NCBI GenBank assembly: GCA_963662665.2
Contig: CAXXJS010000061.1
Coordinates: 64,001-128,000, forward strand
Length of the DNA stretch: 64,000 nucleotides
Reading direction: 5' to 3'
Origin: Candidatus Latescibacterota bacterium
GTDB lineage: Bacteria > Latescibacterota > UBA2968 > GCA-2709665
Shown here piece by piece: positions 31,477 to 58,974 of the stretch. The notes beneath the pieces are model-generated. The model saw only the letters and a program-made list of their open reading frames with translations, ran no database searches and was not told where the DNA came from. Position numbers and translations under genes: made by a program. How positions within the stretch are numbered: position 1 is the stretch's first letter; each line of letters starts with the position of its first letter.

Positions 31477-31527
31477 GACATGCTCTTTTAGCACGGAAGG
31501 ACTATACACTGCGGAGGATTGGACACC

Positions 31528-40886: not shown

Positions 40887-41444
40887 ATGGACCGTACGGA
40901 CTTCGACACGCTCATCTCGAAATACCCTGTCCTGAGTGAGGAACAGGGGCAGTTGCGCCCCAAAGTGCACTTCCGAGGATTCGAAAGTGAACCGGCTTCG
41001 ACTATCTGCGGCGCATCCTATGTCATCCCATTCCTCACGGACAGTCACTGTCTCGTGACGAGGCGGGCGAACGGAAAATGGGTCCTGCCGGGGGGTACTC
41101 TCGAACCCGGCGAGAATTGGGAGGAGGCCGGTCGCCGCGAACTATTGGAGGAAACAGGGAGCATTCTGTCGAAACTCCAACCGATCGGGATGTATCACTG
41201 CGTTTCCCGAGACGACCGCCCCAGGTTGCCCCACTTTCCGCACCCGGCGCATGTGCGGGTCGTATCGTGGGCGAATGTAATTGGCGAAATCGAGGACAGA
41301 GCCGATCCGGATCCGAACAGCAGGATTGTGGACGTTCGGACCGTCCATTTCAGACAGGCGGCAGAGCTGTTCGGGCCGGAGTCTGCGGACTTCGGGGAAC
41401 TCTACCGATTCGCTTATGATATGAAGCGGACTCGTCGGGCGTGA
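40887..41444 (+). CDS. NUDIX hydrolase
   Basis: PGGTLEPGENWEEAGRRELLEETG. Confidence 0.9.
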   Translation: MDRTDFDTLISKYPVLSEEQGQLRPKVHFRGFESEPASTICGASYVIPFLTDSHCLVTRRANGKWVLPGGTLEPGENWEEAGRRELLEETGSILSKLQPIGMYHCVSRDDRPRLPHFPHPAHVRVVSWANVIGEIEDRADPDPNSRIVDVRTVHFRQAAELFGPESADFGELYRFAYDMKRTRRA

Positions 41445-41511
41445 AGGTCAAAGACGGCGGCCTTACCCCACCAGTGGCCAGGCGACCCGCCCCCTGGAGC
41501 TCAGGGTCTGA

Positions 41512-42267: not shown

Positions 42268-42326
42268 GATCAGAATCCCGGAAACGCAGACGTGAAATGG
42301 TTGCCCCACAAATGTGTGAGACTGCC

Positions 42327-43019
42327 ATGACATCAGTGCTGCTGTTCGACGTTGGGGAGACGATTCTTGACGCCGTCGGTCAGCAGGATGCCTTGATGGA
42401 AGTACATCGAACCGCGCTCGCAAAATTTGGCTTCAAGCTATCCGTTGAAGAATACCGGCGGCTGGACGGCGACAAAATCTCGCAGTTCGTTCCAAGTGCC
42501 ATGCACGCCATCACGCGGCACTTTGCCAATTCAGACGTGAGCCTCTTCAATGAGATAACTGAGGAAGTGCGATCGCACTATTCGGAGATCCGGTCGCTCG
42601 GGTACCAGCTCTACCCCGGGGCCGCTGTGATTCTGGAACAGTTGGCCGAAGATTTCACGCTCGCGTTGGCCGGCAACGCGCCGGCGAGTATCACGGGCGT
42701 TCTCGAAAATCTTGGCGTGTTGCGCTGGTTTTCCCATCGGGAGGTGTCGGGGACCTTCGGAATCAAGAAGCCTGATAATCGTTTCTTCCGTACAATACTC
42801 GACAGGGCCGGGTTTACGCCTTCTGAGGCGATCATGATCGGCGATCGACTCGACAACGACATCATTCCGGCAAAGAAGCTGGGTTTGCGAACCATTTGGT
42901 TCCGGCAAGGCAGATATGCGACTTTGGAACCTCGTGTACCGGATGAAATCCCTGATGTGACAATTAACGACCTGGAAGACCTGCCCTCGGCGGTCTATTC
43001 GATCACCGAATCCAACTGA
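42327..43019 (+). CDS. HAD family hydrolase
   Basis: FDVGET, KKPD, IGDRLDND. Confidence 0.9.
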   Translation: MTSVLLFDVGETILDAVGQQDALMEVHRTALAKFGFKLSVEEYRRLDGDKISQFVPSAMHAITRHFANSDVSLFNEITEEVRSHYSEIRSLGYQLYPGAAVILEQLAEDFTLALAGNAPASITGVLENLGVLRWFSHREVSGTFGIKKPDNRFFRTILDRAGFTPSEAIMIGDRLDNDIIPAKKLGLRTIWFRQGRYATLEPRVPDEIPDVTINDLEDLPSAVYSITESN

Positions 43020-43090
43020 ATTTCCGGGATGGCCCCTTATCACGGGAGCACCCGATAGTTTGCGATTTGTCCACAACATTGACCCGGCAC

Positions 43091-43170
43091 CCTGAGCCGC
43101 TCCCTGAGCTTGTCGAAGGGTCGGCGAAGGAAAAAACGTGCCGAAACGCGGGCGCTTCGACAAGCTCAGC
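43091..43170. repeat. Inverted pair of ctgagcttgtcgaag units
   Basis: ccctgagcttgtcgaaggg and cttcgacaagctcag; same unit as in 2786-2835. Confidence 0.7.
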
Positions 43171-43281
43171 GTCCCCGTTTGAGCAAGTTCTTCTCCACCG
43201 TCGCAGGCGTAATAGATGTCAACTATTTACTGCTCCCGGTAATAACTCCATACAGAATCTCCATCCGGACAGGTACGTACA

Positions 43282-44256
43282 ATGGCAAAGCAAAGAAAAA
43301 CAGTTTCACATGATAGCGTACAATTGACGCCGATGACCGCATTTGACAGTCCAGCCCTCGAATTCAACTTTCCGGGTATGAAGGTCGGTATCGCCGAATA
43401 TGAAGAGGGTCCAACCGGTTGTACCGTCTTCCATTTCCCGAAGGGAGTCTCCACGGCGGTCGATATTCGAGGGGGCAGCGTTGGCGCCAGCGAGACCGGT
43501 TATGGCTGGTATCACGCGATTTGCTTTGCCGGCGGCTCTCTCTACGGTCTTGAAGCAGCTCTCGGTGTGCGCGCTGAACTTCTCGCACTGCAGAATTATT
43601 CCATAAACTGGGAGAATATTCCTCTCGTATCCGGCGCCATTATCTGGGACTGGCGAGGCAGGAATAACGCAATCTATCCGGATATACATTTGGGCCGGGC
43701 CGCGTTGAGAACAGCCCGTACTGGCGTCTTTCCTCTCGGCGCACGGGGCGCCGGCCGTTCGGCTCACGTTGGCGGTGGAACCGGGCTGGGCGTTCGAGAG
43801 TCATCCGGACAGGGCGCTGCCTTTCGACAGGTGGGCCGTACCAGGATTGCCGTCTTTACCGTTGTGAATGCGCTCGGCGCGATTGTGAATCGTAAAGGGC
43901 AGGTCGTTCGAGGGAATCGAGATCCAAATACAGGAAACCGCCTGCATATACGGGATCGGGTAGAACACAGATCGGGTAAGTCGGCAAAGAGCAAACCGTC
44001 TCGCGAAAACACGACTCTGACATTGGTTGTCACAAACCGGCAGCTGGACGCGGGATCTCTCCATCAATTGGCTAAACAGGTTCATAGTTCCATGTCGCAG
44101 GCCATTCAGCCCTTCCACACCCAATATGACGGCGATATCCTGTATGCCGTTACGACAAACGAAGTTAAGACAAAATCCCTGGATGAGCTCGATATTGGAT
44201 TCATAGCTACTGAATTGGCCTGGGACGCCGTGTTAACGTCATATGGGGACGTTTGA
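43282..44256 (+). CDS. Peptidase S58 (DmpA/P1) family protein
   Basis: TGCTV, DIRGG, GGSLYGL, VVNALG, NTTL, PFHT.YDGD. Confidence 0.9.
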   Translation: MAKQRKTVSHDSVQLTPMTAFDSPALEFNFPGMKVGIAEYEEGPTGCTVFHFPKGVSTAVDIRGGSVGASETGYGWYHAICFAGGSLYGLEAALGVRAELLALQNYSINWENIPLVSGAIIWDWRGRNNAIYPDIHLGRAALRTARTGVFPLGARGAGRSAHVGGGTGLGVRESSGQGAAFRQVGRTRIAVFTVVNALGAIVNRKGQVVRGNRDPNTGNRLHIRDRVEHRSGKSAKSKPSRENTTLTLVVTNRQLDAGSLHQLAKQVHSSMSQAIQPFHTQYDGDILYAVTTNEVKTKSLDELDIGFIATELAWDAVLTSYGDV

Positions 44257-44296
44257 AAGGTGCGAGCATCCATAATCCATCGAAGGGTCGGTCAAG

Positions 44297-45099
44297 ATGG
44301 CCAAAGACACCTCCCCCCGGCCTCGGCAATACTGGGATGATTACGCGAGCCGATTCAAGAATAGAAGCCTGGCCGATGCCTACGAGCTTCGTCCGCCATA
44401 TCCGTACGAAACGTATGAAATTATAAGGCACCTGCTTGGCGAGTCGCCGGGCCGGGTCCTGGATGTCGGATGCGGTCCGGGTAAGATCGCGCGGATCCTC
44501 GTCGAACACGTGGAATGCGTGGATGCAGTCGACTTTTCGGAGGAGATGATTCGCGTAGGAAAGTCACTGGTCAACGGTGACCATCCACGTCTCACGTGGA
44601 TTCAGGGACGGGTCGAGGAGGTCGAATGGAACCCGCCCTATTCGATGGTGACAGCGGGCGCGAGTATTCACTGGATGGAGTGGGGCGCAGTCTTTCCGAG
44701 ATTCAGGAAAGCGATGCCGGATGGCGGATACGTCGTTATCATCGACGGCGATCGACCCGTCGATCCAACCTGGCGGGAAGCGGAGCTTGTATTGATTCGC
44801 AAGTTCTCGACGAACCCGCATTATGAGGAAATCGACCTGATTCAGGAAATCGAAACGCGGCGCCACCTTCACCTTCTCGGAGACAAACTGACCGAACCCG
44901 TTCGTTTTTCGCAATCGGTGCGGGACTACGTCGGTTCCTTTCATTCGCGCGAAAGTATGTCAGTCGAACATATGGCAGGGAAAACGCCGCGGTCTTCGAT
45001 GCCGAGTTGACGAACATCCTCAGCGACTACGCCGACGAAGCCGGGATGCTGAGCTTTGATCTCCAGACGCGGGTGTCCTGGGGACGGCCGCTGGACTGA
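44297..45099 (+). CDS. Class I SAM methyltransferase with a frameshift near 44979
   Basis: RPPYP, VLDVGCGPG; adding one G restores ...FDAEL...VSWGRPLD*. Confidence 0.85.
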
Positions 45100-45128
45100 A
45101 ACGTGACCTGCAACGCTCGCCGAAGGCC

Positions 45129-45154
45129 GGACGCCCACAAGGGGCGCCCCTACA
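45129..45154 (-). repeat. GTAG-type REP element (copy 3)
   Basis: ggacgcccacaaggggcgcccctaca is the reverse complement of the 2081 unit. Confidence 0.75.
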
Positions 45155-45276
45155 GGTGAAGCAGGAAAGAGCCGGGCGGAGGGTGCTTGAACAGGTACCG
45201 AGAACTGGGAGGCGATTGTCACATTCCGATCTGTTGTATATCCCTTCATCGCATCTTGTTCCAGAACCAAGAGTCA

Positions 45277-46086
45277 ATGGCAGAAATGCACGATACAAAG
45301 CGGATGGCATCGCTCATTGAGGCTGCACGGGAAGATGACGTTCACCAGAGTTTCTCGTACCACGGGTGGGTTGTGCCCGAGTACAAATGCCTGTGCATGA
45401 CGATTCCAAAGGTTGCCTGCACGACGGTAAAGGTGACGCTCTACCATCTGGCTGGAAACCCGGCGCCGGCGGAACCGAACGACGTCCACGGTCTCGATAT
45501 TGGGTTGTTCCTTGCGGAATACAGCACTGAAGAGATCATCGAGATGCTCACGTCACCGGAATGGGTGAGATTCTGCTTTGTCCGCAATCCGTACCATCGA
45601 CTGCTGTCCGCCTACAAGTCGAAGATCGGAAACCCGTCGGACGGCCAGTATTTGTGGCTGCGCGATGCGATCCGGGGGAAGTTCAATTACCCTGATGGCG
45701 ATGGATGTCGCGCCGTCACGGCAACCTTCGCAGAGTTCGTTCATTTCCTGTCTGACTGTAACGCACGGGTACGTTACGAATTTAAGCCGGACGCAATCTA
45801 TGACGGACACTTCAATGCTCAGTCACGGATTCTCAAGCAGGACTTGATCAATTATGATTTCATCGGCCGTTTCGAGAATTTCGCAGACGATTTCAAGACG
45901 GTCCTGACATCTATCGGCGCTCCGGAGGAAACCATCGCCCTTGCCTCGGAGAAGCGGAACGCAACGGCCCACGTACCACTGAACGTAGCGTACATTCGCG
46001 AGTTGGCGGATCTGACCCATGACCTCTACCGCAACGACTTTGCGGCGTTCAAATACGACAGGGATAGCTGGCATTGCGACTCTTAG
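45277..46086 (+). CDS. Sulfotransferase family 2 protein
   Basis: IPKVACTT, FVRNPY.RLLSAY, YDFIGRFE. Confidence 0.9.
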   Translation: MAEMHDTKRMASLIEAAREDDVHQSFSYHGWVVPEYKCLCMTIPKVACTTVKVTLYHLAGNPAPAEPNDVHGLDIGLFLAEYSTEEIIEMLTSPEWVRFCFVRNPYHRLLSAYKSKIGNPSDGQYLWLRDAIRGKFNYPDGDGCRAVTATFAEFVHFLSDCNARVRYEFKPDAIYDGHFNAQSRILKQDLINYDFIGRFENFADDFKTVLTSIGAPEETIALASEKRNATAHVPLNVAYIRELADLTHDLYRNDFAAFKYDRDSWHCDS

Positions 46087-46108
46087 CCCCAATCCGAGAG
46101 AGCAACCC

Positions 46109-46915
46109 ATGGCTTCGCCTGAAACGCCACCCCCTCTCGGCACGTTTTCCTGGTTCGGCTATGAACTGCCTCTGCCTGAACGCATGAGGCTGATCGGGCA
46201 GAGTGGTTTCAGCCACACCTTTCTATGGATCGGAAGTGAGGAACCCCTGGTTGAGTCCGGTCGTGCTCACGAAATGCCCCGGATGGCGGCGGATGCCGGA
46301 CTCGCCGTCGATCACGTCCACGCACCGTACGAAAATGCGAATGCATTCTGGTCAGACAGGGCCAGCGAACGCAACGCTTTTTTAAATGAGAACCTTAAGC
46401 TAATCGAGTACTGCAGCCGGCATTCCATTTCCTGCATTGTGCTTCACGTAACAAAGGGGCCGACACCGCCTCCGCCTCATGAGGAAGGCCTGGGGATTTT
46501 CCGACGATTGGGCGAGGCGGCGGCAGAGAGCGGGGTCGCGCTAGCTCTTGAGAATACAAGGATTGACGATCGCCTGGATTTCATTCTGAATAAACTCCCT
46601 ATGGACAGCCTGGGTTTGTGCTACGATAGCTCACACGACTACCTGTATTCCAGTTCTCCCGGTACAGTACTCGGGAAGTGGGCGCATCGTCTCATCACGA
46701 CGCATTTCTCGGACACTGATGGTCAGGCCGACGTTCAATGGTTGCCAATGAAGGGAATCGTGGATTGGGATGCCGTTGCGAAAGCATATCCCTCGTCGCA
46801 CCCGGGCCCGGTTATGATCGAGGCCGTGCCCAAGGACCCCTCTCAATCGCCGGCGGAGTTTTTGGCTGAGGCGTACCAGGCAGCGGTAAAATTGAGGGAG
46901 AAACTGGTTGGATAG
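46109..46915 (+). CDS. Sugar phosphate isomerase/epimerase (AP endonuclease 2 TIM barrel)
   Basis: VHAP, LALEN, CYDSSH, HFSD, G.VDW. Confidence 0.88.
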   Translation: MASPETPPPLGTFSWFGYELPLPERMRLIGQSGFSHTFLWIGSEEPLVESGRAHEMPRMAADAGLAVDHVHAPYENANAFWSDRASERNAFLNENLKLIEYCSRHSISCIVLHVTKGPTPPPPHEEGLGIFRRLGEAAAESGVALALENTRIDDRLDFILNKLPMDSLGLCYDSSHDYLYSSSPGTVLGKWAHRLITTHFSDTDGQADVQWLPMKGIVDWDAVAKAYPSSHPGPVMIEAVPKDPSQSPAEFLAEAYQAAVKLREKLVG

Positions 46916-46924
46916 GTACTCACC

Positions 46925-47710
46925 ATGACCGAAGACCCCTACAGTCTGGCGGCGAAGCACTACGACGCGGCGTATAGCGCGAAGGAGGACCTGGTCGATA
47001 GGGATTTCTATCTCGATCTGGCCGGGGAGTATGGCGGGCCGGTCCTCGAGCTCGGCTGCGGGACCGGCAGAATTACCCTGCCGTTTGCGCGGCAGGGTCT
47101 TGACGTAACGGGGGTCGATGCTTCCCGTTCGATGCTGGCGATCTTGCGGGCAAAGATCGACGAAGAACCTGCAGACATTCAGCGGCGTATACGAGTGGTT
47201 GAGGGCGATTTCAGGACCGTTCATCTGGGCGAAGGATATCCACTGCTGGTTATTCCGTTCAGACCGATGCAGCACATGTACACCGCGGAAGATCAACTTG
47301 CTGCCCTGACAAACGCGGCGAGCCACCTGGCGGACGGGGGAGTCCTCGCGTTTGACGTGTTCAATCCCCGCTTCGACAAGCTGCTATCCGGTGACGGCGA
47401 AGAACACCTGGAACTGGAATGGCCCACAGACGGCGGGACTGGCAGGACGATCCGACGGTACTTTGTGAAGGACGGGTACGATCCGGTCAATCTGGTTTTT
47501 TCAGGCCGGTTTATCTTCCGCATGTATGAGGGCGACCGGATAATTACAGAGGAAACCGAAAACTTCAAAATGAACGTCTATACTTATCCGCATCTCAAAG
47601 CACTTTTCTACGCGTCCGGTCTTGAGAGCGTGGGGGAATTCGGTTCATTTGATCGGAAACCGATCGGGCCCGACATGCCTGAGATGATATTTCTCTTGAA
47701 ACGTCAGTAA
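46925..47710 (+). CDS. Class I SAM methyltransferase
   Basis: VLELGCGTGR, GVDAS..ML, FDVFNP. Confidence 0.92.
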   Translation: MTEDPYSLAAKHYDAAYSAKEDLVDRDFYLDLAGEYGGPVLELGCGTGRITLPFARQGLDVTGVDASRSMLAILRAKIDEEPADIQRRIRVVEGDFRTVHLGEGYPLLVIPFRPMQHMYTAEDQLAALTNAASHLADGGVLAFDVFNPRFDKLLSGDGEEHLELEWPTDGGTGRTIRRYFVKDGYDPVNLVFSGRFIFRMYEGDRIITEETENFKMNVYTYPHLKALFYASGLESVGEFGSFDRKPIGPDMPEMIFLLKRQ

Positions 47711-47798
47711 GACGATTCCTTTGAAATCGGCCGCGAGAATTCGCGCAAGACCGGACCTTTCACGGATATTCGATACTGACGATGTGAGAAAGAAAAGA

Positions 47799-48212
47799 AT
47801 GAAAACTGTCGTGCGCATCTCAGGTATTCTGATCACGCGTGATGGCCTGTTGCTCGTGAAATGCGATGGTATCAAGGACTACCTGTTGCCGGGCGGAAAG
47901 CTCGAGCCCGGTGAGTCGGACCTGGATGCATTGCGGAGGGAACTCCTCGAAGAGCTCAACATTGTCCCGACGGATCCCGAATTCTTCGGCGAATACGAGC
48001 GTGTAGTTCGTCCTCCGGAATCTGCAGAGACGTACAGGGTTAGCGTTCGAGCTTACGTGGCAGGCTTTGACGGAGAACCGGTCCCGGACCTGGAAGAGGT
48101 ACTTGAAATCGCCTGGGCGTCTATGGCCGATCTCGAATCGGGGAAGTATCGCTTGAATCCTATCCTGCGGAATTTCATTGTCCCCGAACTCAAGCGACAG
48201 CAACGGCTTTAA
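47799..48212 (+). CDS. NUDIX hydrolase
   Basis: PGGKLEPGESDLDALRRELLEEL. Confidence 0.9.
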   Translation: MKTVVRISGILITRDGLLLVKCDGIKDYLLPGGKLEPGESDLDALRRELLEELNIVPTDPEFFGEYERVVRPPESAETYRVSVRAYVAGFDGEPVPDLEEVLEIAWASMADLESGKYRLNPILRNFIVPELKRQQRL

Positions 48213-48407
48213 CCTTGATTCGACAAAACCAGCAACTCTGCGCCGCGATTAAACCTTCCGAAATGGGCCGAAATGGTCGTCCAAAAGGACTTTTTTTCAG
48301 TTCACATCCAGTGACCTGGTGTATCCTGGTAATCCGAAGTCTAATCGCCTTTATCTACTTGCATGAATTCGGTTTTACTTCTCCGAAGAATTACGAATCA
48401 AGGTTAA
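48209..48407 (-). mobile_element. MITE copy 3 (intact, opposite orientation)
   Basis: Perfect 14-bp IR ttaaccttgattcg / cgaatcaaggttaa; no transposase. Confidence 0.88.
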
Positions 48408-48546
48408 TATCTTCAGCACCAACGCTGTCGACTTCCATAACCCAAACAACTGAGGGTCCGAAAACCGTCGAGAATCCAATATGTGTTGCTCCAGGACAGT
48501 CCAATGAGGCAGTATCCCACAACTTCCGCGCAGAGAGGGGCGTAGC

Positions 48547-48909
48547 ATGCAAAAGGTTCAGGGAATCGGCGGGTTCTTCTTTCGGGCAAAGGACCCGGAA
48601 CGACTCACGAAATGGTATCACGTTCATCTTGGCATCAATCCTGCTCCGACGAACATGGAGATGGCGCCGTGGGTGAACGAGTCCGGCGTCACGGTTTTCT
48701 CACCCTTCGAAATTGACACGGACTATTTCGCAGCGGACAAGACTTTCATGCTGAATTTCCGCGTGGCCGATTTGGACGCGATGATCACACAACTGAAGTC
48801 CGCCGATATTGAGGTGAGCCACGAAAGCGAGATGGAGGGCATCGGCCGCTTCGCCCGCATCCACGACCCCGAAGGAAATGCGATCGAGATTTGGGAACCC
48901 GCGTCGTGA
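48547..48909 (+). CDS. VOC/glyoxalase family protein
   Basis: GIGGFFFRAKDP...NFRV.DLD...DPEGNAIEIW. Confidence 0.92.
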   Translation: MQKVQGIGGFFFRAKDPERLTKWYHVHLGINPAPTNMEMAPWVNESGVTVFSPFEIDTDYFAADKTFMLNFRVADLDAMITQLKSADIEVSHESEMEGIGRFARIHDPEGNAIEIWEPAS

Positions 48910-49121
48910 GAGTCGAGCAGGGCATACCGGCTGGGGGCATCGGGACCGTGCTCACGCTGGCGCCGATGGAGGATGCCCGACAGTTGGGGTACCGGATTGC
49001 CGTCCTGCAGGCGTCCAGAATGGGTGAACCCGTCTACCGGAAGATCGGTTTCAAGTCATACTTCAGATACAACTATTGCCATCCAAGGGGATGTACGTTT
49101 GCGAAATTCATGGCGGCGTGA
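48910..49121 (+). pseudogene. C-terminal GNAT fragment
   Basis: GIGT...LQASRMGEPVYRKIGF with no N-terminal half. Confidence 0.7.
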
Positions 49122-49280
49122 GAATCTCCCGGGGTGGCGCTTGTGTTGTTCGACTGGACGAGACGCAATTCCACGTGGGTCCAGGATTGTTGTGGCCTAC
49201 GACGTGATGTTTCAGCAATACGCTGTTGCGGGCCTGGCGCTCGAGAAGGAAAACGTCAACCAAACAAGGGAAATCCCATC

Positions 49281-49664
49281 ATGAAAATTGTACTCACCGG
49301 TGTATTTGTAGATGACCAGGACAACGCCCTGAAGTTCTATACCGAAACGCTTGGTTTTGTGAAAAAGCATGACGTCCCGGTAGGGGAGTTCAAGTGGCTC
49401 ACCGTCGTCTCGCCCGAGAACCCGGACGGTCCTGAACTCTTGCTCGAGCCGAACGAAAATCAGGTCGCAAAGGATTACCAGAAGGGACTCTTCGAACAGG
49501 GGATCCCGGCTGCGTCCTTTGGCGTTGAGGATATCCACGCCGAGTTTGAGCGATTGAAGGCGCTGGGAGTCTCGTTTTCGATGGAACCAACCAATTATCA
49601 GGACGTTATGCTGGCGATCTTTGACGATACGTGCGGCAATTTCGTTCAGATTATGCAGACGTAA
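49281..49664 (+). CDS. VOC/glyoxalase family protein
   Basis: VDDQD.AL.FYTE.LGF...WLTVVSP...FDDTCGN. Confidence 0.92.
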   Translation: MKIVLTGVFVDDQDNALKFYTETLGFVKKHDVPVGEFKWLTVVSPENPDGPELLLEPNENQVAKDYQKGLFEQGIPAASFGVEDIHAEFERLKALGVSFSMEPTNYQDVMLAIFDDTCGNFVQIMQT

Positions 49665-49695
49665 GGTCAATCCGGCGTGCGCTTGACAGAACATC

Positions 49696-50482
49696 ATGCT
49701 GAGGAAGCCGCGATTGGAGAAAACCGTGAAGACCTTTATCCAGTCCGGCACCAGGTTTCTCGTAGAGGTCGGGACTAAACCAGAGCCAGCCCTGGTTCGA
49801 TGGACGACATGGGGCAACAGCGACATTCAACAGTCTTATCTCCTTTCCACATCCGATGGATCTATTCTGATTGATCCGATTCGGCCCATTGGTAGACAGG
49901 CTCTGAATGCCCTGAGGGAACATGCCGATGGTCGATTTCAAGCTGTAGTCTGCACGAGCCCAAACCACGAACGAGATGTGGAGTGGTTCCGCAAACGGTT
50001 CAAGATACCTGTATACGGGCCGGAGTTGGCCCCTGCTAGGTCACGCATCAGGCTGAATTCAGATGAACTGTATCGAGATGGCGATATGCTTTCCGGAAGC
50101 ATCCGCGCCATCAGTTCAGGAGATAAACGAGGCGAGATGTGGCTGCTGTGTAGGGCTTCCAGGACATCCAGGGTCCTGATTTGCGCTGACTCGATATATG
50201 GACAATCCCGGAGGGGTGGGTTCGATGGCGCGACCGTACCGCACTGGATTCAGGAAGGCGGGATCCGGTTGCAGATGAGTGGCGAAGTCAGTCCCGGCGA
50301 AATGAGACGCAGGTATGAACGTCTTGAAGATTATGAGTTTGGGATCGTCCCTGAACGGTCACAATCCGCGTCCTATTGAGAATGCGAAATCTGCACTTGA
50401 AACAGCGCTGACCCAGGGCAAATATGAGGCGTATCCGAAAGGCGCGTTCAGTGTTATCGCGGCAGATTTATCGGGGGAATGA
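49696..50482 (+). CDS. Metallo-beta-lactamase-fold-like protein with a frameshift near 50350
   Basis: ILIDP, NHERD, ICAD; removing one C restores VLNGH...*. Confidence 0.7.
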
Positions 50483-50854: not shown

Positions 50855-51100
50855 TTAAACATGACCGTAAAATTCATTCCGGTCTATCTGCAATGCTCTC
50901 AAAACTGCTCTGATTTGTGGTCTCCTGATTTGTTCATTGGGTTTGCCTGCTGTTCCTGAATATAGTAATTCTCCGTCGACTGTGCGGGTAAAACCCCAAT
51001 AAGTTCCAATAACATCGGTGCCGCTTTCCTGAATATCACATTCGCAATCGAAATTTTGTATTAAACACTCTTTGAATTGTTCATACGTCAGATAAAACAC
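50855..51100 (-). CDS. Divergent HicA-like small protein
   Basis: 81 aa; C-terminal IRRPQIRAVLRALQIDRNEF; directly after the HicB-like gene. Confidence 0.5.
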   Translation of the reverse strand: MFYLTYEQFKECLIQNFDCECDIQESGTDVIGTYWGFTRTVDGELLYSGTAGKPNEQIRRPQIRAVLRALQIDRNEFYGHV

Positions 51101-51110
51101 AGCGAATCCC

Positions 51111-51467
51111 TCATGCGCAGACGCGCGAGTTCGCTTTTACAACAGGCATCAAAGATGTTTTCCATACATCAAGAGCAAGTCGACGATGATTGCGTTTTAG
51201 CTGAGCGTCCTCGGCTTCCTCAAACATGGTCCAGAATTTCTCAGGGGCCTTCTCAATACCCTGTAAGATTTCCCGGTTATTTGTGGCATCAAAATGGCAA
51301 TGAGTCATAATTGTAACGTAAAACCGAGCCCTGACCTGGGGTATTGTCTGTCCTTGAGCAACTATATCATATTCAAGACCCTGAGCAATCCAAACATCTT
51401 CGTTCCTATACAAAAGGACGCTTACTTGAATGACATCTGACAACGACCTTGTAGATTTCCCGTTCAT
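51111..51467 (-). CDS. HicB-like protein
   Basis: WIAQGLEYDIVAQGQT...APEKFW. Confidence 0.65.
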   Translation of the reverse strand: MNGKSTRSLSDVIQVSVLLYRNEDVWIAQGLEYDIVAQGQTIPQVRARFYVTIMTHCHFDATNNREILQGIEKAPEKFWTMFEEAEDAQLKRNHRRLALDVWKTSLMPVVKANSRVCA

Positions 51468-51506
51468 TGCGTACTCCCGTGGTTGTCACTTGCATATCTT
51501 TTCACA

Positions 51507-51536
51507 AAAGTACGTTAACGGAGTACGGTTTGTCAA
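51507..51536 (-). promoter_or_regulatory. Sigma70-type promoter with a palindromic spacer (possible operator)
   Basis: TTGACA-18 nt-TACTTT on the - strand; cgttaacg palindrome in the spacer. Confidence 0.5.
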
Positions 51537-51920
51537 GTATAAAAATCTAGAAACGCATGTACGTACCGGGTTGTACAGACCGTAACAGGAAGGGGAACAA
51601 AGTGCGGGGATCGTTGACATGTGACATTGCGCTATAATTTCCTTTTTGAAATGAAGAACGATGAAGATGGCGAAGGAACGCCTAACGTCAACGGATGTAT
51701 CAATAGGTGCTTGCCGACGGGGCTTCGATTAGGCTGCGGATCTAAACTCGCGGAAATGGAAACTCGCAGTTGGTGTTATACAAGCTCGATCAAAATGAGC
51801 GTGCTAAGCGTGATCAAGCTTGTGATCTGGATTCCCAAAAGCCATCGAATTCAGGACAGAATATAAAATTGGCCTTGCTCGAGACTGTTCAAGCGTGCAT
51901 CCATCTGCTCAATAATCCCG

Positions 51921-54023
51921 TCAAACCGCGACGAGCGGCCGTTCTATTCCGAACAGCCCCAAAAGTTCATCGCTATTCAATTGGGCGGACAGATCCATCG
52001 ACACATCGTCGATGAGTTGGTTAAACAGTTCCCGTTTGTTCTCCAGAATATTGTCAATACGCTCCTCAATAGTTCCGATGCAGGAATACTTGATGACGTT
52101 GACTTTGACCGTCTGGCCGATGCGGTGGCTTCGGTCTTCGGCTTGACTTTCTACGGCGGGATTCCACCAACGGTCCAGGTGAATCACGTAGGACGCCTCC
52201 TGAAGGTTCAATCCCAGGCCGCCCGCCCGCAACGACAGGACCAACACTTTGTGTTCGCTGCTGGTTTTGAATCGTTCGATGACTTCGGTTCGCTCATACG
52301 GAGGCAAGTCTCCGGTGATGGTAAGCGGAATGAAATCCCGCATGTGGTTGACCACGGCGCCAACGCCGGATGTGTCGCTGACGTACTGCGAAAAGATCAG
52401 CGTCTTGTGTCCCTGGGCTACAAGTTGGTCCACGCGGTCCTTGATGTCGGCCAATTTGCTGGATTCACCGGTCTTTGGGTCGGCGTTGCAGATTTGTTTC
52501 AATCGAGTGATGAGCTCAAGCACGTGCCGCACGTTGACTTCCGCGCCAAGAGACTTCAGGTAGACGATGCCTTCCTGTTCGGCCTTATCGTAGCTCTCGC
52601 GTTGGCGGGAGCCCAACTCGATGTCGACCTTGGTGGTCTGCTTGACAGGAAGATCCTTTAAGACCTCCGCTTTTTTGCGTCGAACCTGCAACTCACGGTG
52701 TCGCCTTTGCAATTCCACACCTGGACGGTACCGTTTTGTCACTCCAGTGCAGTCATAATCAACAAACTCCAGTATCGAGGCCAGCTCCTCTTCGCGATTC
52801 TCCATTGGGGTGCCGGTCAGAGCCCACGAACGATTTCTTTTCAACCCCTTCAGGGCATCGCTCGTTTCGTTGCGGTTCTTGATCCTTTGAGCCTCGTCCG
52901 CTACGACCACGTCCCAGTTCTTGCGACCAACAAGAGATTGGGTGCTGAAGTCGGTCCTCAGGGTATCGTAACTCACGAGTGTTATCTCTTTCTCGGCATC
53001 CCACTGCCAACTGCGGTCCGATACAGAACCACGGATGATGATGGCGGAAAGCTCAGGCGCCCATTTTTCGATTTCGCGTCGCCACTGATTCAGCACGCTT
53101 GCGGGAGCCGTGATCAAACACGATTTGATTTCTCGACGTGCCCGGAGAATCCGTAAGGCTGTAATCGCCTGTACGGTCTTACCCAGTCCCATGTCGTCGG
53201 CCAACAGTAGCCGGCGGTTTTCCAGCAATGCCTGGACACCCTGCCGCTGGAAGGGCATCAAGTCGCCCGCCCAATGTAGCGGGATCGTTTGGGAAGGATC
53301 GGGTGGATTGGCCAGAACGTTCCACAGACGTTCGGCCAGAGTTAAGTCGGGTCGTGGGCCTGAACTTGCCTTATGGATATTCTCACGAATTGCGGAGTAA
53401 TCGCTGGCTGGATATCCGGGGCGTTCGGACAATGAAGATAAGCTCACTACAACTGCCAGACCTGAAAGGTCGGTGACGGCGTGAATCCGATCGTCGTCAA
53501 ACGCTACGTCCAATCCTGCAGTCGCCCGTTCGAAAGGTTCAGCGGGATTGCCGCGGTCCAGTATTTCTACGAGAATTTGGCTCGCTTCGTTATCCGGATT
53601 GGGTTTTTCCGTAACCCAAAACAGATCAAAACCTTCGTTATGCGGGTCGTCCGATTCGCCATTGGGCCGAACACCCGACGTTGCGATACGGCAAAAGGGT
53701 ACCTGTACCTTTATTTCTTCGTTGATCGATCCATGAGGTACTTCATCGGCCCGAGCGAGTATCAACGTTGGCACAGAAGTGACAGCTCTGAGTAGTGATC
53801 CTGCCAGCGATTGCAAGATTTCCGGCTTGACGATTGCAAGTTTTCCGCCAGACCCCGAGTAAACCGTCCGTGTGAAGCAGAAGTCCATTGGTTCACCCTG
53901 CGCGGATGTCTGGAACAGCGCCGCACGTATGCCGTTACCGCCCTTTTCTTCGACGAACCGCAGCCAGGCCACCGTGCCGGATCCCGTATTCACCGATTTC
54001 CGTTCATTGAAAAGTTCCGGCAA
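51921..54023 (-). CDS. SNF2-family helicase with an uncharacterised N-terminal domain
   Basis: LLADDMGLGKT, DEAQ, ALTGTP.EN, IFSQY, GGLGLNL, WWNPA...DRSHRIGQ. Confidence 0.93.
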   Translation of the reverse strand: MPELFNERKSVNTGSGTVAWLRFVEEKGGNGIRAALFQTSAQGEPMDFCFTRTVYSGSGGKLAIVKPEILQSLAGSLLRAVTSVPTLILARADEVPHGSINEEIKVQVPFCRIATSGVRPNGESDDPHNEGFDLFWVTEKPNPDNEASQILVEILDRGNPAEPFERATAGLDVAFDDDRIHAVTDLSGLAVVVSLSSLSERPGYPASDYSAIRENIHKASSGPRPDLTLAERLWNVLANPPDPSQTIPLHWAGDLMPFQRQGVQALLENRRLLLADDMGLGKTVQAITALRILRARREIKSCLITAPASVLNQWRREIEKWAPELSAIIIRGSVSDRSWQWDAEKEITLVSYDTLRTDFSTQSLVGRKNWDVVVADEAQRIKNRNETSDALKGLKRNRSWALTGTPMENREEELASILEFVDYDCTGVTKRYRPGVELQRRHRELQVRRKKAEVLKDLPVKQTTKVDIELGSRQRESYDKAEQEGIVYLKSLGAEVNVRHVLELITRLKQICNADPKTGESSKLADIKDRVDQLVAQGHKTLIFSQYVSDTSGVGAVVNHMRDFIPLTITGDLPPYERTEVIERFKTSSEHKVLVLSLRAGGLGLNLQEASYVIHLDRWWNPAVESQAEDRSHRIGQTVKVNVIKYSCIGTIEERIDNILENKRELFNQLIDDVSMDLSAQLNSDELLGLFGIERPLVAV

Positions 54024-54058
54024 TTCAGTTTCCCCCAGGAAGGAGAAATGGTCGCCTT

Positions 54059-55327
54059 CTAATCAGTGTCGTCCCGGGACTCTCGTTCGAGGTCGGCGTT
54101 CTCTGCATAGGGGTGTCGGAACTCCTCGCCCTCGGTGTTGGGTTCGTAGTCGGGATAGTGCCGCATCAAATCCCATTCGTTAATGGCGGCGCGGACCTTG
54201 TAGCGCATCCGATTCTGATATCCGGCGCCGCCGGCCCTAATTGGCACCGGCGGAGCATCCCAGCCGTAGGCCTCGGTGTAGAGTCTCCGTAAATTCTCCA
54301 TGGTCAGTTGGACGCCCGCGTCTGTTGGTTGATTCAACGGCGAACAACCTCGTTCCAGCAATCTCATGCCGGTAATAGCGTCCGCCTTCAAATCCCTGTA
54401 ACGATCTGTGCTATCCAACTTTGGCTCCACGTAGTCGCGGTCTTTTTTTCCATCCGTGATGATTACGGGTGCAAAGTCGTCGGTGACGGAACCCACGGTT
54501 CTCAGACCGGGATACGACCCGTTGGCGGCCTGTCCCAACCAGCGAGCCAGCTCGGCGTAGGACCTTCCCCGTTGCAGGAGAGTGTACGAACCGACGAGTT
54601 CGATCTCGTCCAGCAGCACCACCCAGCCCCTGTAACCAGCAGCCCTGATCAGCTGGACGGCGAAACGGAGACGCTGGGGCGGCAGGTCTGCAGCCCGGGG
54701 CGCTCGGAAGGTGTAACTCTGCTTTTGCCCTATCTGCCTGAGGCCGTTCTTGACCCGGGAAATGTAGATTCTGTCGCCCGCCCAGAAGTTCTCGATCTCA
54801 CTGTTCAGCTCGAGGTCGCGCGACCGTTCGTGAACGAGCAGACTGGCCGGGAACATCTGGCTCAATCCGTTAGAGTCGGTGTCGTTTGACCACTTAAAGA
54901 AGCTGGCGTATTCTTTCGAATCGGGCTTTAACGCCTGTCCCAATTCCTCCATCAACCGGCCGGTACGGTCGGGCATCTGGGTGTTATCCACAGCCGACTT
55001 GAATACCTTGCCCAGGTCGTATAGCGGCGTCTCCTTGCTGATAATCACCTTGCTACAGACGAAACCCAGGGAAAGGGCCCGATCTTCCAGGTGAGTCAGC
55101 AGGTGAGACTTGCCGGAGCCGAAATCACCGGAGACCAGCATCCCGAAAGTGCCGGACGAAAGGTCGACGCCTTCCGTAGCCCTGGTCAACATGCCTTCGA
55201 ACTTATCTTCAGCCTCAGGCTGGTTGCAGCCCAATATCTTCACCGCGTCCCTGTTGGGTACGCCGTTTCGGAGAGCCTCCAGGGCCCGCCTGGAGGCGAA
55301 TTTGTGTTTATCGGCCAAAACCGCCAC
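54059..55327 (-). CDS. DUF2791/BrxD-like P-loop ATPase, catalytic motifs intact
   Basis: ALEALRNGVP N-terminus; Walker A GDFGSGKS; Walker B VVLLDEIE. Confidence 0.85.
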   Translation of the reverse strand: MAVLADKHKFASRRALEALRNGVPNRDAVKILGCNQPEAEDKFEGMLTRATEGVDLSSGTFGMLVSGDFGSGKSHLLTHLEDRALSLGFVCSKVIISKETPLYDLGKVFKSAVDNTQMPDRTGRLMEELGQALKPDSKEYASFFKWSNDTDSNGLSQMFPASLLVHERSRDLELNSEIENFWAGDRIYISRVKNGLRQIGQKQSYTFRAPRAADLPPQRLRFAVQLIRAAGYRGWVVLLDEIELVGSYTLLQRGRSYAELARWLGQAANGSYPGLRTVGSVTDDFAPVIITDGKKDRDYVEPKLDSTDRYRDLKADAITGMRLLERGCSPLNQPTDAGVQLTMENLRRLYTEAYGWDAPPVPIRAGGAGYQNRMRYKVRAAINEWDLMRHYPDYEPNTEGEEFRHPYAENADLERESRDDTD

Positions 55328-55341
55328 TGCCTTCCACCTTC

Positions 55342-56310
55342 CTATGTCAGCCGCACCAGGGATGCGACCGGATTTACCCGGTTCCTATCGCGAACATCGT
55401 CCATCACCCGCGTGCGCAGGGCCTCATAGATACCGTATCCCCGGGACCTGCGATCGCCACTGTCGTCGAGAAAATCGCTGTTGGTTACGACTACCAGTAC
55501 CGTGCTCGTCAACCGGTCAACGCCGTCGACAAATTCCCGTAGTAACTCGTAGTGTTCCATCGCCATGGCTCTGGTGTAGTAGCGCAGACCGTCCCTCGGA
55601 TTTCTGGCCACCGTTACGCGAGCGTTGTCAAACAATACTACCGTTCCCGAGTGCCCCACATGATGAATCCAGTAGAGGGCCGATTCGATGAAGTATCTGG
55701 CCGTGTTGCGATTGATACTGGTGTAGATGGAAAAGGGCCGGACGCCACTGATTCGCGTGTTCTCTCCCGTCAGCCAATCCAATAGGGGCTCACCTGTGTA
55801 CACGCCACGGCTGTTCTCTTCCATGCAAAGATGGCTCATACACACCCGGAAATCTCTCGCCATCTTTGTGTTCCTGAAGACAGTGTTCTGAATCTTCGGC
55901 CTCAGGTTTCCGAGCACGAACTCCGATTCGAGACCGTTGGCTGTTGCGATGGAGTCGAAGACATTGCCGTCCACGCCGGGAGGAATTCCGTCAATCCGGT
56001 AGCCCTGCTCGGTGGCGAGCCTCAGGATCATACGGCGAGCCAGCAGCCGCCAATCGACCTGGCTGGCGAACCTGAAAAAGAAATCCTGCGGCATGTGCGC
56101 CCGCATCGTCTCAGCGTTCAATTTAATGAAAATATAGTCCAATTCATCGCAGTTGGCCTCCGTTTCTGCGTACAAACCAGTCCTGGAACCCTCGTTTGAT
56201 GGCACTGCAAACTTTATCGACGCGCCGCCACAGCGGACATACGACGACAGGTATTCTTCGTTAATGACCTGAAGCCAGTCCTTGAGAGAGATTGAGATTG
56301 TGTTGTACAT
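55342..56310 (-). CDS. DUF2791/BrxD-like paralog with degenerate Walker motifs
   Basis: GGASIKF without GxxGxGK; WLTGE; VVLFDN in place of DE; YELLREFVD; G...YEALRTR. Confidence 0.75.
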   Translation of the reverse strand: MYNTISISLKDWLQVINEEYLSSYVRCGGASIKFAVPSNEGSRTGLYAETEANCDELDYIFIKLNAETMRAHMPQDFFFRFASQVDWRLLARRMILRLATEQGYRIDGIPPGVDGNVFDSIATANGLESEFVLGNLRPKIQNTVFRNTKMARDFRVCMSHLCMEENSRGVYTGEPLLDWLTGENTRISGVRPFSIYTSINRNTARYFIESALYWIHHVGHSGTVVLFDNARVTVARNPRDGLRYYTRAMAMEHYELLREFVDGVDRLTSTVLVVVTNSDFLDDSGDRRSRGYGIYEALRTRVMDDVRDRNRVNPVASLVRLT

Positions 56311-57110
56311 CAGTCGTCCCTTGCAAATCGAATGCCAAAGTACTTGATATCCTGGCCCTGTGGACCCACAAAGGTGAATACGTTTCTTCCGCCCCGGGTG
56401 CCAGTGGATGCGTGGAAAAATACTTTGGCGCCTGACGTAGTTTCTGTAACTCCGCTTGTCTCCAACTGGTAGAGGTCACGGGCAAAGTCAATTTGTGCAT
56501 AATCTCGCCCGCTACCCGGCAGTGAGGTGAATAACCTGTAGATTCTTGCCAAAAGTACCACGCGACCGGAGCCGCCCTTCATGAGTCCATCCGAAGCATC
56601 TTCCTTCACAAGCTCCAGGTAAACTTTGTACAGGGCTTCCAAAAACCGTTTCGCGGAGAAGCGACTGCGCTTCTGCTGGTTTGCAACCAGCAGACCGGCC
56701 AGGTAGGAAGGCTTAATGGTCGAGATTTTCTTGTTGTCAATTCGGATCGCCTCATCCTCGGGAAATATTCGCACGATGGATGGGTGTGAGATTAACTGTT
56801 CGTCCCGCAAATGGATTTCCAGACCCCTTTCCAACGCGACACGACGTAGCTCGTGTGTATAGCCTCCCTTGAGGTATTCAGCTACTTCATCATCTTCATA
56901 GGGCCAGGACCGGATAGCGTCCGTCACTACTTGCGTCAGGTTCTCAAGCGCAACATTGAGTCCGGCTCGTGCCTTCTTGATAGCGCCTATGTTACCCTCT
57001 TTTGCGGCCTTTTGCAGGCGTCTGGTCAAATTCACCAGGTTCGTAGCGGACTGGCGGGCTGATTCAGCTGCATTTTCGGAATTGTCAAATGCTTGTCCGA
57101 TATTGTCCAT
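56310..57110 (-). CDS. Hypothetical protein with a coiled-coil N-terminus; first gene of the operon
   Basis: ATG at 57110 after RBS cagga; TGATG coupling to the next gene. Confidence 0.8.
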   Translation of the reverse strand: MDNIGQAFDNSENAAESARQSATNLVNLTRRLQKAAKEGNIGAIKKARAGLNVALENLTQVVTDAIRSWPYEDDEVAEYLKGGYTHELRRVALERGLEIHLRDEQLISHPSIVRIFPEDEAIRIDNKKISTIKPSYLAGLLVANQQKRSRFSAKRFLEALYKVYLELVKEDASDGLMKGGSGRVVLLARIYRLFTSLPGSGRDYAQIDFARDLYQLETSGVTETTSGAKVFFHASTGTRGGRNVFTFVGPQGQDIKYFGIRFARDD

Positions 57111-57248
57111 GTCTTTTTCCTGCGTTCGAAAGATTCGTCGAATAAGCGACGTGATTAATGGTGGCGCAAACACGGCAGTCACGGGAACGTCTTCCTGTTC
57201 CTCCGTAATGCATGTAGCCGAAATTGCCCCGCGGTGGCTGGCTTATTC

Positions 57249-57277
57249 AGCATAAAGTACTACCTGCGTGTTGTCAA
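57249..57277 (-). promoter_or_regulatory. Sigma70 promoter of the four-gene operon
   Basis: TTGACA-17 nt-TATGCT on the - strand. Confidence 0.7.
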
Positions 57278-57359
57278 GCGAATCGTTCGCAATAGTCAGA
57301 AAGCCGCCGCCGTAATGGCCGCGCCTTACTTCTGTGATTCTGTTCGATGGATCGTCGGT

Positions 57360-58634
57360 TCAGTCAATCAGGCCATGTCTGCGAAGCACGGCGTCGACAT
57401 CATCCAGCCCCGTTCCCTTCCTGGTTCCCTCGAACTTTAATCCCGCATTCAACAGCCTGTCGATCACGGCCGGGTAGTCGGCCCCGGGTCTTGGCGAATT
57501 GATCGCGAAATGCAGGGTCGTGCCCATTGCGGTGCCGCCGAATTCGTTCCGCAATTCGAGCAAGGGGCCGTGATCGAGGATCAGGTCCATGGTGTCCGGA
57601 TGTCCCTGGGAAGCGGCCCACATCAGGGCTGTCATCTTCCACGTGGCCTGTCCGTCCACGTCGACGCCCTTTCCCAGCAGGTATTCGGCGATATCCGTCC
57701 GTCCGAACCGGCAGGCATCTTCAAATGCGGCCGCCAGTTCCGCCTCAGATACGCCGCGTTCTTCAACGAATTCCGTCGTCAGGTCCAACCGGCCCAGTCC
57801 CGCGGCCATCGCGACGTTCTTCACCTCCGCCCCCAGGCGCACCAGCGCGGCTGCCGACTCAGGGTACCCGAATTTGAGCGCCAGACGAACCGGCGCGCCG
57901 TCGTTCTTAACGCCATCCACTTTGGAACCCGCCTCGACGAATATCTCGATCAGTTCGGTCGCCACGCCGCGATAATGGGGATGAACGCTGGTCACGAGCG
58001 CCAGCATCGGCGGTTCTCCCGAGTCGCCCGGCCCGCACAGGGCGTCCACCTCAGCGCCGGCATCCAGCAGACGCCGCGCGATCTCCGGCGCATTGGCGGG
58101 TGACCGCTGGCGAAAGTCCTCAATTCCGTTGGCGGCGAGGTAATACAGCAGCGTCGCCCGGTGAATGCGCGCCGAATGGGCGTGGGCCAGAGCCGGATTA
58201 CCGCGCAGCAGCGCTTCGAGCGTTGGGAGGTCCCCGTCGACGACGGCATCGGCCGCGACCTCGAACTCAGCCCCGGCGTCGGTCTCGCGCGTATCTTTTT
58301 CGACGAATCTGGCGAACGCATCCCAACTCGCAAAGCTGTGGGCTCCCGCGATGAGAAACTGAGCCCTGGCCAGCGTGAGCCCGTCGCCATCATCGCCAGC
58401 CTTCTCCGACATTTCAATGGCGGCTTTTTCGACTTCGCCGATCGCCCGTTCCCAACTGCCCCGCACAAAATCCGTCAGGTCGGGTCCGGACACACGGACT
58501 ATCTCGCCGAGCCAATCGTTACAGAACCCCTTTACAGCGCTGGCATTCTCCGACCGGGTTGCCTCGGTGAGTCCCTCCGCCAATTTCGTGTAATCCGGGA
58601 GATTTGGACGGGCGGGTAACGGAAGGGTGTCCAT
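57360..58634 (-). CDS. Ankyrin repeat protein with an LPARPNL N-terminal motif
   Basis: LP.RPNL...AQFLIA..H.F.SW followed by ankyrin repeats. Confidence 0.88.
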   Translation of the reverse strand: MDTLPLPARPNLPDYTKLAEGLTEATRSENASAVKGFCNDWLGEIVRVSGPDLTDFVRGSWERAIGEVEKAAIEMSEKAGDDGDGLTLARAQFLIAGAHSFASWDAFARFVEKDTRETDAGAEFEVAADAVVDGDLPTLEALLRGNPALAHAHSARIHRATLLYYLAANGIEDFRQRSPANAPEIARRLLDAGAEVDALCGPGDSGEPPMLALVTSVHPHYRGVATELIEIFVEAGSKVDGVKNDGAPVRLALKFGYPESAAALVRLGAEVKNVAMAAGLGRLDLTTEFVEERGVSEAELAAAFEDACRFGRTDIAEYLLGKGVDVDGQATWKMTALMWAASQGHPDTMDLILDHGPLLELRNEFGGTAMGTTLHFAINSPRPGADYPAVIDRLLNAGLKFEGTRKGTGLDDVDAVLRRHGLID

Positions 58635-58974
58635 GGAAAGGTCCTCTAGATAAAGAGCGGTAAGACGGGAGACGGAAGACGTGAATGGATATGAGTGCCC
58701 CGTGCGTTTTCATTTCTTGCCGGAGGCATAAAGGAAGACTCAATCGGGCAAGGACGTCTTCTCCCGTCTCACCTCTACCCTCTCACGGCTTTCAGGTTTT
58801 TCCTCTACAGGTCTTATATCAAGCTATACAATCCAGCCCACCGTTTCAAGTTCTATGGCGCTTACGCTTCAGGGCAGTCGAACCCGCCCGCGTGGTTCCT
58901 GTTTTGGATTCTTGCCCCCTTTGAAATCCATTTTCGCAGTAAGAATCAGGAGCGATTGTGTTATATTGACAGCT

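Follow-up and report, generated by a model that had tools for sequence, protein, structure and literature searches.

The DNA analysed here, hereafter the window, is a stretch of 64,000 nucleotides from Candidatus Latescibacterota bacterium (assembly GCA_963662665.2, contig CAXXJS010000061.1, positions 64,001 to 128,000), and our subject is a cassette of four minus-strand open reading frames (ORFs), termed A, B, C and D, that lie packed head to tail at positions 51921-57182. The stop codon of A and the start codon of B overlap in TGATG, and gaps of 14 nt and 35 nt separate B from C and C from D. These four genes are one operon (Table 1). They encode, in order, a protein of an unnamed family, a pseudo-ATPase, an intact AAA+ ATPase and a helicase of the SNF2 family with an additional N-terminal domain, and the same arrangement recurs in uncultured bacteria of other phyla.

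An earlier note on this DNA had placed a near-consensus promoter before four packed minus-strand genes. The ORFs are confirmed, and TTGACA-17-TATGCT is present at 57277..57249, where it is the best of 7 promoter-like sites within 51400-58900. Shuffled sequence of this interval yields 3.5 +/- 2.0 such sites, so the consensus match alone is not significant. The -35 and -10 hexamers are invariant in 6/6 aligned Latescibacterota loci and lie within an island of conservation. The leader between promoter and gene A has no Rfam match (a scan of the whole window gave none in the operon), its predicted fold is no better than that of shuffles (z = -0.03), and no intrinsic terminator was found 3' of gene D. 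The most probable start of gene A is ATG 57110, which gives a predicted protein of 266 amino acids (aa), because its homologues are about 266 aa long and because one Latescibacterota locus (L004) carries a 5-nt indel within the 24-codon extension that leads back to the GTG start. A 31-nt imperfect inverted repeat (84% complementary), which may be due to chance, has one arm in the leader of A (57121-57151) and the other in the upstream ankyrin ORF (58290-58320).

Table 1. Features of the four-gene cassette, in positions of the window
Feature	Position	Strand	Description
Gene A, ORF	56310-57182	-	290 aa counted from GTG start
Gene A, corrected	56310..57110	-	266 aa from probable start ATG 57110; unnamed protein family
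Gene B	55342..56310	-	322 aa; BrxC/BrxD-family (PF10923) pseudo-ATPase
Gene C	54059..55327	-	422 aa; intact BrxC/BrxD-family AAA+ ATPase
Gene D	51921-54023	-	700 aa; N-terminal domain and SNF2 helicase
Gene D, residues 1-195	53439..54023	-	predicted RNase H-like fold of the Endonuclease V/UvrC/PIWI kind (AlphaFold2, Foldseek)
Gene D, residues 196-245	53289..53438	-	variable linker; predicted local distance difference test (pLDDT) ~50; mean pairwise identity 0.33
Gene D, residues 246-700	51921..53288	-	SNF2 ATPase core with DDMGLGKT and DEAQ (Pfam)
Sigma-70-like promoter	57249..57277	-	TTGACA-17-TATGCT; sequence reading, 10/12 consensus
Conserved leader	57111..57248	-	~140 nt from -10 hexamer to start of A; alignment of loci L001-L005

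The four proteins

Proteins B and C both belong to Pfam family PF10923 (BrxC_BrxD), for which the cut-off is 22.2 bits. C matches it at 1.7e-17 (63.9 bits), and B at 4.9e-8 (32.7 bits) via the C-terminal half of the profile only. The motifs are as the earlier note had read them: C has the Walker A sequence GDFGSGKS and a Walker B with DE (LLDE), and B has no GK[ST] and reads FDN at the Walker B position. These states are universal among the orthologs of each gene. Orthologs of C keep both G.GK[ST] and hhhhDE in 66/66 cases, and orthologs of B have GK[ST] in 0/63, hhhhDE in 0/63 and hhhhDN in 53/63. Mean pairwise identity is 0.63 for B versus 0.66 for C. Because its inactive state is universal and its conservation equals that of C, B is best understood as a maintained pseudo-enzyme and not as a decaying gene; judged from its motifs, it is a conserved pseudo-ATPase.

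The two proteins had been described in the earlier note as adjacent DUF2791-like paralogs, which stands insofar as both exceed the PF10923 cut-off, but not in the sense of a close relationship. BLASTP of B against C gives nothing significant (E = 2.2), and hhalign relates them at E = 0.0027 with a probability of 11%, across the Walker B strands only. What their consensus sequences have in common is AGYxG-hhhLLD(N/E), followed by R at +15 and Y at +17. B and C are evidently paralogs at the family level only, and remote ones. Among models of defence genes, C finds its best match in the PADLOC BrxD model (5.7e-16), which scores higher than the SngB model (E = 7.4e-5, 20 bits, with no stretch passing alone), and neither B nor C has more than weak BrxD and SngB matches in PADLOC-DB v2. 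The NCBIfam BrxD equivalog NF033438 has a cut-off of 350 bits, which C (58.9) and B (22.5) do not reach; by this measure, C is no ortholog of BrxD. Among PDB chains, the profiles of A, B and C find nothing below E = 0.08, and PHROGs holds no match for B, C or the N-terminal domain of D.

An active/inactive ATPase heteromer, as proposed in the earlier note, passes complex prediction, which supports the view that B and C bind each other. The pair scores 0.86, and the best of three controls scores 0.00. The score mark behind this figure is reached by 116/157 solved complexes and 2/215 mismatched pairs, counts that hold roughly here because the analysis's own alignments were used. At least 87% of contacts are shared between prediction runs, with a partner pLDDT of at least 89, and the predicted interface joins positions 69 and 241 of C (Walker A/B) with an invariant N-terminal GGAS-K of B (residues 27-32).

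Protein D carries a clear SNF2 helicase core (SNF2-rel_dom PF00176 at 3.3e-46, 158.1 bits; Helicase_C PF00271 at 1.5e-19, 70.7 bits), the motifs of which are maintained in its orthologs (G[LM]GKT in 62/62, DE[AG][QH] in 61/62). The earlier note was right to call it an SNF2 helicase but missed the domain in front of this core. Residues 1-195 are modelled by AlphaFold2 with a pLDDT of 81.3, and the model has 32 Foldseek matches in PDB at E <= 0.001, the best being endonuclease V (EndoV; 4xpu_A, 3.2e-5, probability 1.00); others are the C-terminal half of UvrC and the PIWI domains of Argonaute and short prokaryotic Argonaute (pAgo) proteins. Template modelling (TM) scores are modest, at 0.30-0.34 over about 106-130 columns. 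As modelled, residues 1-195 belong to the EndoV/UvrC/PIWI branch of the RNase H-like fold. No Pfam family is found for the domain among 38 members at E <= 10, and all of its 43/43 matches are confined to SNF2 proteins of ~700 aa. Six loci (L035, L041, L057, L072, L073 and L078) encode it in a gene of its own, of 182-184 aa. When catalytic positions are mapped by secondary structure, and not by residue-level superposition, the alignment has no invariant acid in beta1 (17-25) or alpha1 (67-80); E94, after beta4, is nearly invariant, as are R33 and R166. Because the usual invariant acids are missing from beta1 and alpha1, the domain is expected to bind and not to cut, and it is probably non-catalytic.

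Pfam, NCBIfam, PADLOC and PHROGs contain no family for the strongly conserved protein A, and at E <= 10 no recurrent Pfam family appears among 30 of its members or 29 divergent representatives. It forms a large family of its own: when 1.84 billion representatives are searched with its profile, 811 representative clusters are recovered at E <= 1e-3, of which 577 remain at E <= 1e-10 and 254 at E <= 1e-30, and nearly all representatives are stand-alone proteins of 250-280 aa. In the ESM Atlas it falls into unnamed clusters only. In the AlphaFold2 model (pLDDT 85.5), a long N-terminal helical hairpin (residues 4-67) is followed by a middle part of alpha/beta structure, and the C-terminal domain combines helices and strands. 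Foldseek finds 0 PDB matches at E <= 0.001 for this model (best 0.39), and the structural search of BFVD likewise gives 0 at that threshold, its best value of 7.9e-3 coming from matches to the helical hairpin only. The middle part keeps E87, D103 and D125-x-K127, a pattern that recalls the restriction-endonuclease-like PD-(D/E)xK motif, and A is possibly a nuclease. The sole structural hint in this direction is MutH, at rank 27 and a non-significant E = 1.6 in the Foldseek search of PDB.

Mean pairwise identity is 0.45 for the N-terminal domain of D, the fastest-evolving folded part, versus 0.74 for the SNF2 core, and it is 0.51 for the helical hairpin of A. Such low identity in these two parts is the pattern expected of parts that face an invader. 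Two representatives of the A family (P0151 and P0176) join part of A to part of an ATPase of the BrxC/BrxD or AAA type; they are probably chimeras due to frameshifts in assemblies, though real fusions would tie A physically to the ATPases.

Conservation and spread

At least 163 loci with a relative of A were found in a scan of one genome per species, and the locus counts given here rest on the best 80. Genes A and B occur in 80/80 of these loci and C in 79/80, the exception being a contig that ends after B (L001). D follows C in 69/79 loci with sequence beyond C, so that the stand-alone module of the earlier note does have a gene order that is conserved elsewhere; direct comparison with the D of one locus (L049) gives 60% identity over 687 aa. 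The complete A-B-C-D order is found in at least 9 phyla: Latescibacterota, Chloroflexota, Binatota, Acidobacteriota, Pseudomonadota, Nitrospirota, Tectimicrobiota, Actinomycetota and Thermodesulfobacteriota. The four-gene unit is not universal, however, and the earlier note had missed an A-B-C variant: no D occurs within 10 kb of A-B-C in 10/79 loci (L022, L023, L025, L027, L028, L033, L043, L047, L048 and L069), five of which are Vicinamibacterales. Four of these (L025, L028, L048 and L069) share a clade of the C tree with loci in which D is split (node value 100). The helicase must therefore be dispensable in such lineages or encoded elsewhere.

Beyond the cassette, little is shared among loci. 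When the 1445 ORFs of these 80 loci are clustered, no more than four clusters are widely shared, namely A (69 loci), C (66), B (63) and D (62); these sizes are undercounts because ORF calling is crude in GC-rich DNA. The next largest flank cluster reaches 7/80 loci, and flanks are not conserved. Pairwise-identity vectors of the four genes correlate at r = 0.80-0.90 over 38 loci, which is what one would expect of genes that evidently share one history. Trees of C and A are shallow and have interleaved phyla, with 13 and 14 label changes versus a minimum of 8; in them, Latescibacterota are sister to a Dehalococcoidia row (node value 97) and Tectimicrobiota group with Nitrospirales (100). The interleaving of phyla in such shallow trees suggests that the cassette has passed as a whole from one lineage to other, distant ones. 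The hosts found are all uncultured lineages known from metagenome-assembled genomes (Latescibacterota, Dehalococcoidia, Caldilineaceae, Binatia, Entotheonella and others), and the cassette may therefore be missed by defence catalogues that are built on cultured bacteria.

The genes that lie nearest to the cassette were sampled as 146 ORFs, three on each side of 25 taxonomically spread loci, with two very long ORFs dropped. Pfam places a toxin-antitoxin, restriction, transposase or similar neighbour in 14/25 loci, and the mobile or defence-type families involved are PIN, RES, Fic, TumE, Uma2, DUF4143, HsdM and transposases. In the corresponding PADLOC scan, from which five long ORFs were dropped, convincing matches occur among the six nearest ORFs in 7/25 loci, a figure that comes without a background rate. 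These neighbours are PDC-S01 (twice), PDC-S03, PDC-S04/SoFic, PDC-S11, a type I methyltransferase and an ATPase like HEC-01A/AriA.

Relation to known systems and candidate function

The cassette probably fits no named system, and its layout has likely not been named, though this is not certain. The layout is not described in the literature searched, in which coverage of subscription journals and supplementary tables was limited. The earlier note knew of no matching named system either, which agrees with PADLOC-DB v2, where A has no model and the matches of B and C are the weak ones given above. The note had also found the BREX (bacteriophage exclusion) and Shango partners to be missing. This extends beyond the window, as PglX-, PglZ- or TerB-type genes make up 0/146 of the flank ORFs and no flank cluster exceeds 7 loci. 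The cassette is best read as belonging to the ATPase-plus-helicase kind of system, related to BREX and Shango, without a DNA-modification gene.

Type 2 BREX (Pgl) is alike in that, in the accessible part of its description, an ORC/Cdc6-like AAA+ ATPase of PF10923 forms a tight pair with a superfamily 2 helicase. The accessible text of PMC12839542 calls BrxD and BrxHI a "tightly linked dyad" and proposes a helicase-loader role for BrxD. Unlike type 2 BREX, the cassette lacks PglX, PglZ, BrxC and PglW, has two ATPase-family genes (one of them dead) and includes the extra conserved protein A. BREX PglZ, the PglX/BrxX methyltransferase (or PAPS reductase) and BrxC are also absent from the neighbours in the window and, by Pfam, from the 146 sampled flank ORFs, in flanks that were covered to 10 kb on each side. 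BrxHI is Ski2/Lhr-like, whereas D is an SNF2 protein; D reaches at most 92.5 bits against the PADLOC BrxHI and BrxHII models versus 283.9 bits for ZorD, its best PADLOC match, which covers the helicase core only. Shango (SngABC) protects against phages, according to the accessible part of its report (10.1101/2022.11.11.516204), and, as described there, is likewise a small stand-alone operon of an accessory protein, a PF10923-type ATPase and a helicase. Its SngA is TerB-like, whereas A has no Pfam or PADLOC match and 30 members of its family show no consistent weak match at E <= 10, and its SngC is a DEAD/DEAH helicase (Lhr-type), whereas D is SNF2; SngC is not among the best 25 PADLOC matches of D, the top ones being SNF2 models. 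Shango also has one ATPase where the cassette has a live/dead pair.

A combination of AAA+ ATPase and SNF2-family helicase is found in type 3 BREX and in the DUF499-centred BREX-related systems (BR and Hma), as far as the accessible text of PMC12839542 describes them; an inactive P-loop nucleoside triphosphatase (NTPase), present in type 3 of both BREX and BR, is presumed there to be a sensor. According to the same text, the core of these systems is an N6-methyltransferase, accompanied by PglZ or a fused nuclease, whereas the cassette has none of these; the N-terminus of their helicase is a TUDOR domain with an inactive restriction endonuclease, whereas that of D is EndoV-like; and their inactive NTPase is of the STAND type, whereas B belongs to the BrxC/BrxD family. 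Pfam and PADLOC find neither the DUF499 ATPase of Hma nor a methyltransferase in the cassette, and D matches the HmaA model weakly (75 bits). Adjacent genes for an active and an inactive Orc/Cdc6 ATPase occur in mobile neighbourhoods of the conflict-system type, as the accessible part of PMC10853773 reports. In the pairs covered there, it is Walker B that the second copy has lost, with Walker A retained, whereas B has no Walker A, and a KAP NTPase or some other effector serves as partner, with no mention in that part of an SNF2 or A-like protein.

The helicase core of D resembles SNF2 proteins of defence systems, with PADLOC values of 6.6e-85 for ZorD, 3.2e-66 for DpdE and 3.3e-41 for DrmD. 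D differs from all three in that its matches are limited to this core. It scores 151 bits against the NCBIfam ZorD model, which has a cut-off of 1500, and, against two NCBIfam DrmD models with cut-offs of 610-950, it scores 77.7 bits where 950 would be needed and 67.9 bits. ZorA and ZorB have no match among the proteins of the cassette or its neighbours, and DISARM DrmA/DrmB/DrmC and the Dpd partners are likewise not present.

We lean slightly towards reading the four genes as a self-contained, horizontally mobile cassette that protects the cell from invading DNA, whether of phages or of other origin. Its horizontal spread, its kinship to families of defence genes and its defence-type neighbours favour this reading, and each is circumstantial. 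The observation on which the earlier note was built is confirmed, and its interpretation is partly supported. In the proposed mechanism, live C and pseudo-ATPase B would form the predicted heteromer, which would bind DNA or a replication or entry intermediate and recruit or activate the SNF2 translocase D, by analogy with the loader role proposed for BrxD. The EndoV/PIWI-like domain of D may read foreign nucleic acid or dock D onto B-C, and A could, more speculatively, be an effector or adaptor. Since the cassette has no methyltransferase, self/non-self discrimination could not be epigenetic. Tentatively, and with considerable doubt, a more specific version can be envisaged: a widespread, modification-free immune system of a new type, in which the live/dead AAA+ heteromer loads an SNF2 motor, the degenerate EndoV/PIWI-like domain recognises a structural feature of invader nucleic acid, A is a new nuclease or effector, and the unit moves between distant phyla of a shared habitat. 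If the cassette does defend against phages, a stand-alone, methylase-free relative would be added to the group of BREX, Shango and Hma, and it would help to isolate the role of the BrxD-like ATPase and helicase pair, a question not yet settled for BREX. Two uncharacterised modules would also gain a function, the 811-cluster A family and the EndoV/PIWI-like domain, and the cassette would provide a clear case of a conserved pseudo-ATPase that is partnered with its live paralog.

Several observations weigh against a defence role. No experiment on any member of the cassette was found in the literature searched, and the cassette holds no recognised nuclease, toxin or modification enzyme; the nuclease motif of A is a pattern only, and the N-terminal domain of D lacks the invariant acids in beta1 and alpha1. 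Part of the B-C score may reflect the way in which AAA+ subunits pack in general, as solved structures show; B and C themselves have no sequence relative in PDB, though AAA+ assemblies in general are well represented there. The immediate neighbours in the window are ordinary small-molecule enzymes with no PADLOC match, and the defence-island signal across the sampled loci is modest and suggestive only. The absence of D from the ten A-B-C loci counts in the same direction, as does the occurrence of the cassette at one syntenic site in 6 Latescibacterota genomes, which looks like stable vertical inheritance. Relatives of A are absent from 72,556 plasmids and 50,697 phage records searched by tblastn; the operon DNA, compared with plasmids by megablast, has no match.

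Some of these points would suit an accessory remodeller in genome maintenance or transcription, in which the AAA+ pair would load the SNF2 protein at damage or stalled complexes and the EndoV/UvrC-like domain would sense lesions. EndoV and the nuclease half of UvrC, which the N-terminal domain of D resembles, are both repair proteins, and bacterial SNF2 proteins include the RNA polymerase partner RapA, to which D has a weak NCBIfam match. The lack of an effector or toxin, the metabolic neighbours in the window and the stable syntenic position within Latescibacterota would also be at home in such a role. We nevertheless consider it unlikely, given a patchy distribution in which distant phyla are interleaved in shallow trees, flanks that are not conserved, and a D that is lost or split in some lineages; moreover, the nearest families of the cassette proteins are ATPases of BREX and other defence systems and defence SNF2 helicases, and conservation is lowest in the domain that would serve recognition. 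Horizontal spread also fits a module of mobile elements for target selection, maintenance or exclusion, with an AAA+ pair that acts like TnsC, MuB or IstB. The six genes nearest to the cassette include a DDE transposase in 5/25 loci (L016, L046, L047, L057 and L059), the Orc/Cdc6-type family includes transposition ATPases according to the accessible part of PMC10853773, and C weakly matches TnsC among PDB sequences, at a non-significant E = 0.084. This explanation is rather improbable, however: no conserved transposase, integrase or relaxase accompanies the cassette, the search for flanking repeats that would mark an insertion in the window yields short, chance-level pairs only, and A is unmatched on any of the plasmid or phage records.

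A decayed BREX locus that has lost pglX, pglZ and brxC would account for the membership of B and C in PF10923 and for the catalytically dead state of B. It is very improbable and close to refuted, as the intact, constrained four-gene layout recurs without BREX genes in 69 loci of at least 9 phyla, C scores 58.9 bits versus the 350-bit BrxD equivalog cut-off, and B is universally inactive with a well conserved sequence.

Surroundings of the cassette in the window

An ankyrin ORF (57360-58634, minus strand) lies directly upstream of the cassette and is syntenic only with the five closest Latescibacterota loci. Its PADLOC match, PDC-M72A, covers the ankyrin repeats only. It is one of five ankyrin-repeat proteins in the 64 kb, the others being encoded at 6614-7294, 10501-11109, 31519-32145 and 32324-33361 (the last also on the minus strand). 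The mix of hosts in which the cassette occurs, together with these many ankyrin-repeat genes, presumably resembles that of host-associated marine consortia. Directly downstream of gene D, GC content drops to 0.45 at 50855-51920, and neither of two small minus-strand ORFs in this interval (51111-51467 and 50855-51100) matches anything in Pfam, PADLOC or PHROGs.

Further along, a plus-strand run at 37512-50379 is unusually concentrated in small accessory enzymes, with two APH-type kinases, two NUDIX hydrolases, several S-adenosylmethionine (SAM) methyltransferases, a sulfotransferase, HAD and metallophosphatase hydrolases and a glyoxalase; similar enzymes also occur earlier in the window. A group II intron occupies 16875-18666 on the plus strand, where Rfam RF02003 (16875-17012, 90.4 bits) is followed by a reverse-transcriptase/maturase ORF with RVT_1 and GIIM domains (17296-18666). 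Two minus-strand transposase genes lie within 27320-31183, in a lower-GC stretch at 26-30 kb; one is a DDE_Tnp_1_4 gene (27320-28684, 519.8 bits) and the other belongs to the Mutator family (29858-31183). SIR2 domains occur in several defence systems, and one is encoded by a plus-strand ORF at 34805-35863 (PF02146, 5.4e-13).

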